Shown here: piece after piece, positions 43,760 to 48,844 of the stretch
How positions within the stretch are numbered: position 1 is the first letter of the stretch
Layout of the letters: the number at the start of each line of letters is the position of its first letter
IMG/VR virus record: IMGVR_UViG_3300030117_002543
Coordinates: 1 to 57,228 of that record
DNA: 57,228 nt
Reading direction: 5' to 3' (one strand)
DNA from: a virus
Lineage: Duplodnaviria > Caudoviricetes
Notes under the pieces: model-generated
The model's database searches: none
Told to the model about the DNA's origin: nothing
The model's input: only the letters and a program-made list of their open reading frames with translations
Made by a program: the position numbers and the translations under genes

Positions 43760-44482
43760 GACGTTGGAGGGACTAGCATTACGGCGTGGAGTGTTCAACT
43801 AGTATTCTCCGCGTCTTACACCTAGTTATCGCATTGCGAGTAAGCAATCTTGTCGGGCCTTACCCCGGCTGGCTTCTTGTTTCCTTCAGTTCCTATAGGA
43901 ATCTGTCTGGTGTCTTGATAAGGGGTCTTCTCATGGTTCGTTACGGGGATTGCCGCCCCCTGAATGAGTTCGCGCTATCCCGGAGGACTCTCAAACTACT
44001 AATGCATGTACATCGACTTACCTTATCTAATGCCTAAGCGAAAGGACACCTCTCTCGCGTCTTTGTCTCTAACCCTCTCCCATGGGTATCAACAGCCAAC
44101 CTCTCTCTGTCGAGATTCAGAAGGCCGACATTCGGAATTAAAGGAGTGTGAAGGGAACGTCAGGAGTAGAGGACATCATCTCGGAGGTGTTGGGAAGGGA
44201 GTTCACTCAAGACCTCAACCTTCGACCAAGCGCACCTCTAGTGTCTTAGCATCCATCAGTTCCGTGTGGAATGTGATTGGTGGTAGCCGGGACTTATGTG
44301 TACCCGGAAGTTTCCTGTCCTCCTACATAATTGCAGAATTACCGAAACCGCCAATATTAGACTCGTTAGTGTCCTTTACAACGACTCCTATCTCTAGGTG
44401 TGATTGCCCCACGACAGGGAATATTGCACGTTACCCCGGAGGAGGGGTATTCCGTCACTACCGTACTAGTCCGTCAACTAGC
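43760..44482 (-). ncRNA. Candidate ~720-nt structured non-coding RNA
   Basis: Own dyad promoter; 5'/3' closing stem (44451-44478 with 43763-43790); nested long-range helices; no plausible sense ORF. Confidence 0.7.
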
Positions 44483-44503
44483 AATAAGGGCATGTATAAT
44501 TGT

Positions 44504-44551
44504 CTTATGAGGTGCGCATACAAAGTTTGCTTACCATATGGTTGTGCTTTG
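44504..44551 (-). promoter_or_regulatory. Dyad element copy 3 + TATA-like box
   Basis: CAAAGT(44521)-N6-ACCATATGGT(44533)-N3-GCTTTG; minus-strand CCTCATAAG 44512-44504. Confidence 0.8.
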
Positions 44552-44565
44552 CAGAACCCCTATTG

Positions 44566-44661
44566 GAACCAAGCCCCGAATGATATTCAGTGCGCCCCTC
44601 CTTGAATCCCATTGTTACAGGATGGGGGGCGGCGAATCACCTATCACCGGGGCTTGAGTTC
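44566..44661. ncRNA. ~95-nt imperfect long hairpin
   Basis: GAAC/GTTC, CAAGCCCCG/CGGGGCTTG, TGATA/TATCA, CGCCCC/GGGGCG, TCCT/AGGA. Confidence 0.5.
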
Positions 44662-46140: not shown

Positions 46141-46602
46141 ATGGCACAAATGGAAAATTGGAATGAATTTAAGGACACCGTGAACAGTTTCCTAAAGGGT
46201 GGTTCAGTCGATGAGATGACTGCTTCCACCGTTGGGGTACTCATCGGTAAAGGAGACAACAACATAACGACACAGACGAAGGTGACCTCGGCAATCAAGA
46301 CCATGCTAGAGGACTTCGATGGCGCACCAGTGGGCAGGGTATCCGCTCTAAACGGTGAGGCATTGACTACCTTCACTCAGGCAAGCGAGGCAATCAGGGC
46401 GGTTTCAACCGTCTTCGATTCTCACCCTGCACTAAAGGGACTCGTTCTTCCAAACGGGAGGAGCAAGATATCGCACTTCCCCGATGGTGATGCATGGGCA
46501 GACTTCTTGATTGGAGTCATGCGCAGACACGCAATCTCAGCAAGCAAGGCTGGCTGGGATGGCTCTGCCGACAGCCTAGTGGCTTTTCAGGAGGCTAACT
46601 AA
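46141..46602 (+). CDS. Hypothetical protein, paralog of 49244..49756
   Basis: 153 aa with AGGAG RBS; visible alignment to the 49244 protein. Confidence 0.8.
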   Translation: MAQMENWNEFKDTVNSFLKGGSVDEMTASTVGVLIGKGDNNITTQTKVTSAIKTMLEDFDGAPVGRVSALNGEALTTFTQASEAIRAVSTVFDSHPALKGLVLPNGRSKISHFPDGDAWADFLIGVMRRHAISASKAGWDGSADSLVAFQEAN

Positions 46603-46643
46603 GTCGGTGATGTTGTCTTCCCGGCACACATCAGGGTGAATGC

Positions 46644-46674
46644 CAAAGTCTCCCACCATATGGTAGCAACTTTT
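46644..46674. repeat. Dyad element copy 6
   Basis: CAAAGT-N5-ACCATATGGT-N4-ACTTTT. Confidence 0.75.
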
Positions 46675-46829
46675 AATCTCGGAAATAAACTTGGAAAAAG
46701 GTACATTCATGCGTAGGGCGCGTTTAAAAGGGTTTTAGCCAAACCCCTATTGAGAATCCTGACTCGCTTCTTTCTGCGAGTTATTCCAAATGTATACTTA
46801 ACCCACTCTACTCTTTAGTTAAAAAATAT

Positions 46830-47206
<377 letters not shown>

Positions 47207-47662
47207 ATGGCATGGAAGAAGAAAACTGAAAGTGAAAGTGAAAATGAAATAGAAGAGATGGTTGAAAATTTCAAAGAGGAGTATAAGCCAACTCTAGGAC
47301 CGAAGGCAGAGGTGACAACCCAGCCCTTCAATGGTATGCAACACATGCAACCAGCACCGAAGGATATGAAATGGAAGGAAGTGAAAGCACACATGGCAGG
47401 AACAAGTCAGACAAGAATAGAAGAAGTAATGGAAGAAATAAGAGTGATGCTCTTGGCAAAGAACGAGCAGTATGGAGATTCGGCATTGAGTCCGAACCGC
47501 ATATTCTCCAAGGCATCTACGGATGAACAAATCAAGGTCAGAATTGACGACAAGTTGAATCGCCTAATGCTAGGCAATGATTCAATGGAAAGCGATGAGG
47601 ATGTTATCAAGGATTTGATAGGATATCTCATATTACTCCTAGTGTCCCAAAAGGATGCTTGA
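47207..47662 (+). CDS. DUF1599-like nucleotide-modification-associated (all-alpha NTP pyrophosphatase-like) protein
   Basis: 'KNEQYGDS...VRIDDKLNRL...DLIGYLILL' motif; ATG at 47207. Confidence 0.7.
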   Translation: MAWKKKTESESENEIEEMVENFKEEYKPTLGPKAEVTTQPFNGMQHMQPAPKDMKWKEVKAHMAGTSQTRIEEVMEEIRVMLLAKNEQYGDSALSPNRIFSKASTDEQIKVRIDDKLNRLMLGNDSMESDEDVIKDLIGYLILLLVSQKDA

Positions 47663-47667
47663 AGTGA

Positions 47668-48212
47668 ACCCAAGGGGACTGGTAATCTCCTTGGAATAAA
47701 ACAGAGTTTGCAAAGTAAAAAGTAGAAAGAGACAGGGTTTGCTAATTAGAGGTTGATTTCCCACGTATAAGGGAAACATTACAACGGGATGCTTCGACTT
47801 GATATCATCGAGTAAGTCGTAAAGAATCAACCATCACATGTTGGTATGTTATAGCAGTAATACGTGTAGGCAAGTAAATCACGTTTGGATAATGAGATGT
47901 GGAACCAGTTTTCTAAGACTGCTTCTGAATTGAAGTGAAACTGCCGAAAAAGCAGGTCAGTCGAGTAAGTCGATACTACGGTATCGCAGGAAAAACCACT
48001 ATTTCCCCCTCCCGAATGACATCGGCATAGAACGAATACTTCTCTGTAACAATTAGACTCCAACTGTCAGAGCGGAATGTTTACATTTCACATCTGATGG
48101 TAGAGAAACGGGGTTTGTTGCGAATAAAAAGGACAGTTTTCTGTTTGACGTATCTTTGGTTTTAGCCATCAGTTCCGTAGTAACAAGGGGGTGGTTCCCC
48201 TGTCCTTCCCCA
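47668..48212 (+). ncRNA. Candidate ~550-nt structured non-coding RNA
   Basis: No sense ORF; many helices including C(UACG)G tetraloop hairpin CGATAC-TACG-GTATCG (47971-47986). Confidence 0.6.
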
Positions 48213-48236
48213 CAACAAAACAATAGGTGAATGAAA

Positions 48237-48734
48237 ATGAATATATTTGTATTAAGCGAATGCCCAACAGAGAGTGCAGAGATGATGGTGGATAAACACG
48301 TAGTCAAGATGCCGACAGAGAGTATGCAGATGATGTGTACCATAGCGAATCTACATGACTACCAGACTCCATTTGCTCCGGTGATGTTGAATCACCCTTG
48401 CACTATTTGGGCGAGACAATCAAGACAGAACTTCAATTGGTTGCGAGAGCATACCCTTGCCCTTTGCAAGGAGTACACTCGCAGGTATGGTAAGCGACAC
48501 AAGGTAGAGTGGTGTCTCAAAGAGTATGATGCCACATGGATTACCTTGGAGTCCGAACTACCAGACATCGGATTGACACCCTTCGCGGTTGCGATATCCG
48601 ACCACATGAACTGTAGGCAACTAGACGGCTTTGACGATATGTCAGTTGTCGATAAGTATCGTGCGTACTACATGCACGACAAGAATCACTTCGCATCTTG
48701 GAAGACCAAGAAGCCAAGTTGGTTCACAGCGTAA
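48237..48734 (+). CDS. Pyrimidine dimer DNA glycosylase (T4 endonuclease V/DenV-like family)
   Basis: 'MNIFVL...DKHVVKM..ES.QM', 'NHPCTIWAR', 'LCKEYTRRYGKRH', 'YRAYY'. Confidence 0.8.
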   Translation: MNIFVLSECPTESAEMMVDKHVVKMPTESMQMMCTIANLHDYQTPFAPVMLNHPCTIWARQSRQNFNWLREHTLALCKEYTRRYGKRHKVEWCLKEYDATWITLESELPDIGLTPFAVAISDHMNCRQLDGFDDMSVVDKYRAYYMHDKNHFASWKTKKPSWFTA

Positions 48735-48743
48735 GACTCGCAA

Positions 48744-48844
48744 GAGCAGGGTTTGCCAAGTAAAAACGGGAAAGGTTTCTAATCATTGGAATAGTGTTCA
48801 ATTTTCTTTCTCTCTTCTGTAGCACGAACCCGTTCCCCCTGCTC
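48744..48844 (+). ncRNA. ~100-nt structured intergenic element
   Basis: GAGCAGGG/CCCTGCTC and AACGGG/CCCGTT stems; shares CAG[AG]GTTTGC-x-AAGTAAAA with 47702. Confidence 0.45.

Follow-up and report, generated by a model that had tools for sequence, protein, structure and literature searches.

A compact and a probable large member of an uncatalogued family of stem-closed RNAs between early genes of a marine tailed phage

The locus and its non-coding gap

As a 57-kb fragment of a tailed double-stranded DNA virus with an estimated completeness of ~60%, the window (the whole stretch of 57,228 nucleotides analysed here) represents a phage of which a complete relative measures 98 kb. Relatives of this phage come from marine and seawater data, and its TerL is at most 27% identical to those of Bacteroides phages. 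Structural genes, including those for the portal, TerL and an SU10-like capsid, occupy the minus strand up to ~42 kb; transcription switches strand at ~46-47 kb, and downstream lies a plus-strand block of early-type genes, a class II ribonucleotide reductase among them. This block contains a 568-nt gap (47663-48230), flanked upstream by a phrog_1485 gene (47198-47662) and downstream by a Pyr_excise / phrog_624-like gene (48231-48734) whose ribosome-binding site AGGTGA and ATG (48231) lie at 48221-48233 on the plus strand. The phrog_1485 gene product, which may resemble MazG-type pyrophosphatases, has no Pfam match below E 0.02 and no PDB match below E 0.29.

Several further elements were observed around the gap. 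At the strand switch there is an AT-rich control region (46602-47198; 88-98% identical to L002, the most distant of the close relatives described below), which holds four direct ATGAGAAACGT-like words with inverted copies and, at 46890-46944, two 23-nt repeats starting TATAAT / TATAGAAT; an RNA contig of depth 26 from run X1 covers 46900-46997 of it. A full-length manA RNA (Rfam RF01745) lies on the minus strand at 44277-44483, scoring 84.7 bits against a gathering score of 55.2, and a 199-aa plus-strand ORF that overlaps it (44006-44605) and has no family match is probably spurious. In more distant relatives, tRNA gene pairs are found in the early region downstream of the homologous gene (L029, 5810-5990; L039, 3693-3853).

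A preliminary description of this DNA, made from the letters alone, had proposed that the gap encodes a large structured RNA. The gap is indeed non-coding, as that description held: plus-strand ORFs are all of 31 aa or less, minus-strand ORFs of 63-96 aa are without support, and indels of 1-3 nt between relatives are spread through it. The proposed check against Rfam placed no family in the gap, even at E up to 10. Rfam 15 (4227 models) includes tRNA, tmRNA, RNase P, group I and II introns and the known self-cleaving ribozymes, together with GOLLD, ROOL, HEARO, IMES and manA; its sole match in the window is the manA RNA at 44277-44483, and a search of 47400-48500 at E up to 10 returned just a chance SAM-SAH match of 13.8 bits inside the downstream gene. 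The statement that the gap holds no tRNA, RNase P or intron also agrees with our results, as none of these was matched, ARAGORN called 0 genes in the window, and no tRNA or tmRNA appeared at E up to 10. A scan for sigma-70-like promoters and intrinsic terminators found none bounding the RNA, Bacteroidetes-type and archaeal motifs sought by eye were not seen, and the gap contains no iterons.

All motifs named in the preliminary description are present in the sequence, at or beside the positions at which it had placed them. On the plus strand these are the hairpin strands CCAAGGGGA/TCTCCTTGG (47670-47678/47686-47694), the pair GGTTGATT/AATCAACC (47751-47758/47825-47832), ACGTG/CACGT (47862-47866/47880-47884), the three-way junction GACTG[CTTC..GAAG][CTGC..GCAG]CAGTC (47917-47962), the C(UACG)G hairpin (47971-47986), the segments GCGGAA (48072-48077), CTGATGG (48094-48100), CCATCAG (48166-48172) and TTCCGT (48173-48178), the distant pair GACAGGG (47731-47737) and CCCTGTC (48198-48204), and the strands of a proposed pseudoknot, AGATGTGGAA (47895-47904) and TTTCACATCT (48086-48095). 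Several of the local helices are upheld by the analyses that follow, namely the hairpin at 47670, the GGTTGATT/AATCAACC domain, the three-way junction and the UNCG hairpin.

Folded as one molecule, the whole 568-nt gap is not more stable than expected by chance (minimum free energy z-score -1.28 on the plus strand and -1.23 on the minus strand). Local domains are moderately more stable than their shuffles in predicted plus-strand folds, with z-scores of -2.48 (47666-47698), -2.50 (47747-47836), -1.68 (47913-47990), -3.88 (48055-48110) and -1.80 (48126-48206); among four domains folded on both strands, the plus strand scored better in two and similarly or worse in two. RNAalifold on three sequences also drew long-range pairs; the program did not discriminate between strands. 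One helix that it proposed (47736-47743/47874-47881) was rejected, as two independent changes at one column break the pairing, and a search for an internal tandem duplication at the sequence level was not significant (best local score 24, against 22.8 +/- 3.6 for shuffles). What really supports a structured RNA is the comparison with relatives, together with the RNA contigs. Taken with these, the gap 47663-48230 is a real non-coding, plus-strand, structured RNA that reads as a chain of a hairpin (47670-47694), a large module (47699-48049), a spacer hairpin (48058-48105) and a compact module (48105-48212).

Modules of the gap and their conservation

Eight further distinct copies of the gap were found by way of the downstream protein and exact DNA words. 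A two-block pattern recovered seven close relatives from metagenome contigs and had no match in the genome collection; three conserved blocks, used as exact patterns, returned only two viral contigs, both already among the relatives, and no match to the gap was found by blastn among 50,697 phage records. Against the whole records of five more distant relatives of the downstream gene, the best blastn E-value of the gap was 0.16, and in L004 and L005 what lies upstream of the homologue of the downstream gene appeared, from the alignment, to be the reverse strand of a minus-strand gene. The flanking genes of L002 are 92-98% identical to those of the window; identity across 47640-48020 is just 39-79% and returns to 95-98% across 48040-48140, so that the 5' two-thirds of the gap change faster than the flanking genes while their hairpins survive.

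A curated structure of 81 pairs, in which most pairs are invariant and which draws on a clade of about four lineages with low diversity, shows five double-sided changes among nine close relatives, against 1.5 in shuffled alignments (0 of 500 reaching five) and 0-2 in slid controls; one of the five covarying helices (346-359) may owe its change to an alignment accident in L002. The plus strand alone is compatible with the UNCG and GNRA loops and with the many G-U pairs that never vary.

The large module is preceded by a leader (47648-47696, plus strand), at the start of which the contigs of three RNA studies begin (47647/47648). It overlaps the final 15 nt of the upstream gene (stop codon 47660-47662) and carries hairpin P1 (47670-47678/47686-47694; z -2.48), which is retained in L002 with its inner stem and loop altered.

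Covariation of its closing pairs and an RNA contig from run X1 (47697-48013) support the large stem-closed module at 47699-48049 on the plus strand. Its closing stalk joins R1 (47701-47706) to Y1 (48042-48047) and R2 (47720-47724) to Y2 (48037-48041) around a 13-nt bulge (47707-47719), with ACAGAG (47701-47706) and AAGUA (47720-47724) facing UACUU-CUCUGU (48037-48047). The strands of the stalk lie ~340 nt apart. The closing and loop-stem pairs are standard at 13 of 13 positions in all six sequences compared (78/78 cells; 28-54% in slid controls). Two adjacent stalk pairs are changed on both sides in L022 and L023, giving compensatory swaps at 47722/48039 (G-C in four sequences, A-U in two) and at 47723/48038 (U-A in four, C-G in two).

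Inside the stalk lie a domain at 47751-47832, hairpins at 47836-47849 and 47862-47884, and a helix (47894-47902/47996-48005) that encloses a variable domain. The hairpin at 47836-47849 has U-A replaced by A-U in three sequences and C-G by U-A in one; the domain 47751-47832 is retained in L002, where its outer helix is shifted and compensated, and at 47786-47819 two alternative folds are each favoured by different lineages. The variable insert (47911-47992, plus strand) consists in the window of the three-way junction at 47917-47962 and the C(UACG)G hairpin at 47972-47985. According to nine independent minimum free energy folds, it is exchanged in close relatives for one to four different hairpins, even between near-identical phages, and the enclosing helix is predicted in eight of the nine around unrelated inserts. 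Within the insert, the loop UACG becomes UGCG in L012, and a GGGA loop occurs in L001, L011 and L015.

Two further words within the large module were noted. At 47800-47809, CUUGAUAUCA contains the palindrome GAUAUC; its invariance in all nine close relatives despite variable flanks marks it as a candidate for a kissing loop. Just two copies of the 12-mer TCGAGTAAGTCG exist in the whole window (47808-47819 and 47961-47972), and both are inside this module.

Towards its 3' end the large module carries Block II (48002-48050, plus strand; matched by nhmmer in 10 of 28 sources), the sole sequence block common to all large-module lineages. It comprises TTCCC, a linker, a 2-bp stem, a loop, Y2 and Y1; the stem (48023-48024/48033-48034) presents the loop GCAUAGAA (48025-48032). 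This loop, GCAUAGNA, is invariant across all lineages, and the outer pair of its stem is intact in 12 of 12 sequences (G-C in six, C-G in five and A-U in one). A degenerate Block II pattern matched 19 stretches, nine of them within contigs already known as relatives; the other ten were rejected as chance-like, being GC-rich and gene-like with nhmmer scores of at most 19.5 bits. A GGCATAG or CATAG word resembling the Block II loop was also seen just 5' of the 5' stalk of compact modules in L033 (1078-1092) and L035 (3785-3808).

Between the two modules, the spacer hairpin (48058-48105, plus strand) is formed by 48058-48060/48103-48105, 48063-48072/48091-48101 and 48074-48079/48084-48089, with a z-score of -3.88 on the plus strand against -2.49 on the minus strand. 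Its pairs change from U-G to U-A in L011 and from G-U to G-C in L001 and L015, with one A-C break in L002.

The compact module (48105-48212, plus strand) was recovered by a covariance model, R1, built with 17 pairs from five distant relatives of another clade, the window's own clade being left out. It scores 39.6 bits, with E-values (3.6e-07, or 2.5e-08 with filters off) that are rough, having been obtained from a shortened calibration. The match aligns 48105-48212 to model positions 1-125, and the same place is matched in six close relatives. Its R1/Y1 helix, GGGG (48110-48113) with CCCC (48208-48211), is shortened relative to the model, while R2/Y2, AAGGACAG (48129-48136) with CUGUCCUU (48200-48207), and the terminal hairpin (48187-48190/48197-48200, loop GUGGUU) align to it fully; the pair 48188/48199 changes from G-C to A-U in L002. 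The module ends 9 nt upstream of the ribosome-binding site.

In a search of 29 sources (226 kb, both strands), model R1 gave 22 matches in 16 sources, all on the gene strand and all intergenic. With the reservation that an alignment fitted to the model favours pairing, 95.7% of cells in these matches are paired, against 78.0% after shuffling (reached in 0 of 500) and 41-62% in slid controls; 65 cells are doubly changed, against 20 after shuffling, and 10 of the 17 pairs are changed on both sides. The compact module 48105-48212 is thus a member of a family of stem-closed modules. The homolog covariation that the preliminary description had proposed to look for is found in this family and in the closing stalk of the large module.

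A further compact module occupies the next intergenic gap (48744-48844, plus strand; 22.8 bits, E 0.0071, or 0.00048 with filters off), at a place also matched in L001, L002, L011 and L012; the stalk of this module, GCAGGG/CCCUGC, differs from GCAGAG/CUCUGC of the model by compensated change. With filters off, nothing besides these two window sites falls below 0.06. The complete 98-kb relative has exactly two compact sites, both at this locus, and a distance of 19-45 nt separates the end of the compact modules from the next start codon in the window and five relatives. In L003, which has no RNA gap at the corresponding position, tandem compact modules were observed at 62-169 and 183-278 (53.9 and 34 bits).

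A search for relatives of the upstream gene gave 24 loci, and by a crude ORF criterion the gene is followed by a gap of 290-850 nt in at least 14 of them. By sequence, the gaps group into several clusters, and the Rfam search of them returned no family, only tRNAs situated elsewhere. Block I (47697-47739) is common to the window's clade, L022 and L023, and Block II to these and a second clade of seven loci, whose nhmmer profile finds the window's clade weakly, at Block II. In that second clade, RNAalifold predicts a large RNA closed by two long-range helices, with 22 of 60 predicted pairs compensated; one uninterrupted 3' strand pairs with a 5' tract and, beyond a U/A-rich bulge of 12 nt, with a second tract, and a compact version of the same layout, of 100-130 nt, lies downstream of the large modules. 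The large module of the window has the closing architecture of the large modules of this clade. It is not matched by model R1, as expected from its 310-nt body, and its probable kinship with the compact family rests on the shared layout and short motifs.

We conclude that the compact module, and probably the large module as well, belongs to an uncatalogued family of stem-closed plus-strand RNAs that lie between early genes in one group of marine tailed phages. In the modelled plan of a module, a purine tract R1, a U/A-rich bulge and R2 would pair with a continuous 3' strand, Y2-(U)-Y1. The predicted stalk wraps a body of ~60-90 nt in the compact form, or of ~310 nt with swappable hairpins and the loop GCAUAGNA in the large form.

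RNA contigs and readings of the locus

Of 24 listed sequencing runs, 13 are RNA, and each holds 5-14% of the words from a 2.4-kb stretch around the gap. Contigs were mapped for four RNA runs, one from each of four studies, and all four have contigs within 47647-48024: the body of the large module is present in RNA libraries of four ocean studies. These contigs carry no strand and no reliable ends or level, their ends may be assembly breaks, and RNA libraries can contain DNA; with that limit, run X1 has a contig at 47697-48013 plus six unaligned letters (depth 336) and run X11 one at 47648-48024 that continues into an Illumina adapter (depth 9.8), neither run having a contig assembled on the flanking genes. 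Run X8 has a contig at 47648-47874 (depth 10.3, against 2.7 on the downstream gene), and run X2 has small contigs within 47647-47815 at depths of 3.3-3.7 each (up to 7 in one tally), against 4.9 on the upstream gene. The depth of the body is therefore far above that of neighbouring genes in X1, X2 being an exception in which gap RNA is not more abundant than the upstream gene. Contigs start at 47647/47648 in three studies and end at ~48019-48024 in two, in both cases beside the Block II loop (~48019, and 48024 into adapter). The stretch 48034-48195 is without an RNA contig in the four runs, which is not evidence of absence. The adapter at 48024, of the type entered by read 2, fits a plus-strand RNA if the library was dUTP-stranded.

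We hypothesize, with a probability of about 0.5, that the gap yields a processed, stable and probably trans-acting RNA cut from the early transcript. The modules would be co-transcribed with the early genes from promoters near 46900, and the large module would be excised by cuts at its stalk, or close to it, and at the border of the GCAUAGNA loop. It would then persist as a stable RNA of ~325-375 nt and might act in trans, for example as a protein-binding RNA or scaffold, and the compact modules could act as punctuation for the processing or stability of the downstream mRNA. Because no promoter or terminator bounds the RNA, processing is something that we infer and do not see. As the contigs end at 48013-48024, before the end of the module, the abundant species would be without the 3' strand of the stalk that closes it. 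These ends lie 13-23 nt before that strand, at the conserved loop, and fit either cleavage in the loop, whether by a nuclease or by self-cutting, or cleavage in the stalk with subsequent trimming by exonucleases towards 47996-48005.

The modules may instead act in cis only, as intercistronic elements of processing, stability or translation whose stalk is cut by a host RNase; the structured pieces would protect or tune the neighbouring messages, and the abundant RNA would be a nuclease-resistant by-product. This is a possibility to be taken seriously, though we consider it on the whole unlikely. It would account for modules that occur solely between early genes and on the gene strand, for the 19-45 nt between compact modules and the next start codon in the window and five relatives, and for the placement of both compact modules of the 98-kb relative at this one locus; the RNA lacks a promoter or terminator of its own in our scans, and contigs of three studies run from inside the upstream gene (47647/47648) into it. 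A 310-nt body with a conserved loop and a fast-changing insert, however, exceeds what a cleavage site needs, and the depth of 336 on the body in X1, with no flanking-gene contig, points to a species that accumulates separately. A more specific variant holds that the large module is a new self-processing RNA, with GCAUAGNA as its active site, cutting itself between G48024 and G48025 to release the abundant species of ~325 nt, or that a dedicated nuclease cuts it at the 5' edge of this loop. The only block shared by all lineages does coincide with the contig ends (~48019 in X1, 48024 and adapter in X11), and the loop sits on a covarying stem. Yet a search at E up to 10 matched no known ribozyme class, the evidence of two contig ends is thin, and trimming by an exonuclease towards 47996-48005 gives similar ends, so that we regard self-cleavage, like the dedicated nuclease, as improbable.

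The preliminary description had favoured a single ornate RNA of ~550 nt, closed by GACAGGG/CCCTGTC and with a possible AGATGTGGAA/TTTCACATCT pseudoknot, and this we now find hard to credit. Both pairings are present in the sequence, GACAGGG/CCCTGTC stays paired in L002, where two C-to-U changes give G-U pairs, and the long-range pairs drawn by RNAalifold would agree with such a molecule. The AGATGTGGAA/TTTCACATCT pairing is, in the alignment, invariant except for its two terminal pairs, which are broken in L002 and the L001 group. The energy of the whole gap nevertheless resembles that of shuffles, the large module closes on itself with covariation, and the contigs of two studies stop at 48013-48024. 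The CCCTGTC strand is also claimed by the stalk of the compact module, whose closing helix AAGGACAG/CTGTCCTT (48129-48136/48200-48207) was recovered by the independent covariance model. The extended pairing GCGGAA..CTGATGG/CCATCAG-TTCCGT fares no better, as four of its varying pairs are broken and two are retained as G-U wobbles (the CTGATGG/CCATCAG helix alone breaks in three pairs among relatives), against one broken and two consistent in the rival local hairpin 48063-48101. It is scarcely believable that the gap is a DNA-level element such as an origin or operator array, or a decayed gene, that makes no RNA. A GAGAAACG-like word at 48103 does resemble the repeated operator-like word of 46977-47197, but helices that covary and include G-U pairs, tetraloops that fit one strand, and RNA contigs all speak against an element of DNA, as does the lack of iterons in the gap, and a decayed gene is opposed by the lack of an ORF and by frame-breaking indels between relatives. 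The body of the large module changes much faster than the surrounding genes while its fold is retained; such fast, fold-preserving change in an early region is what would be expected of an RNA engaged in host takeover or an arms race.

Comparison with known systems

Complementary flanks around structured RNA between cistrons are known from RNase III stalks (early-region sites of phage T7, rRNA precursors) and from tRNA punctuation. The modules of the gap likewise enclose structured RNA between cistrons within complementary flanks. They differ from RNase III sites, where cleavage falls within a coaxial duplex of ~20 bp, in a predicted stalk of only 11-14 bp with a large one-sided bulge; a hairpin of 4-5 bp is stacked on this stalk. 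The compact module has a 5-bp hairpin, with a loop of 7 nt, that runs straight into a stem of 6-8 bp, dimensions that may resemble those of a tRNA; by contrast with tRNA, the 7-nt loop is UGUGGUG or GUGGUU and has no T-loop motif, and no tRNA was called.

Ornate phage-associated RNAs such as GOLLD and ROOL are several hundred nucleotides long and multi-domain, and have no known role. The RNA of the gap is like them in its length of several hundred nucleotides, its several domains and its presence in a phage; it differs in having no Rfam match and in being a chain of modules with variable inserts instead of one conserved fold. A third such RNA, manA (RF01745), which has been reported to form RNA-only cages (10.64898/2026.07.01.735769), is likewise a structured RNA of marine viruses, and the window phage itself carries one; manA has no match in the gap at E up to 10, has another fold and lies on the other strand.

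Within the literature on structured RNAs of marine phages, we found no description of the stem-closed module family. In behaviour, its closest analogues appear to be the RNAs of the Cellulophaga crAss-like phage phi14:2, in which abundant and stable early intergenic RNAs, with no role known according to that account, have been described (10.1101/2020.03.07.982082). The likeness is one of behaviour; the available description of those RNAs gives no structure, and blastn of the gap against the phage collection did not match phi14:2. It lies in long intergenic RNAs between early genes of a marine phage, running in the direction of the genes and reaching levels above those of most genes (10.1101/2020.03.07.982082). 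The stem-closed modules are a new family among the phage-borne structured RNAs without known role, a small and puzzling class (manA, GOLLD, ROOL) to which this locus adds a family supported by covariation, together with modules of 350 nt and 108 nt as concrete objects for testing.
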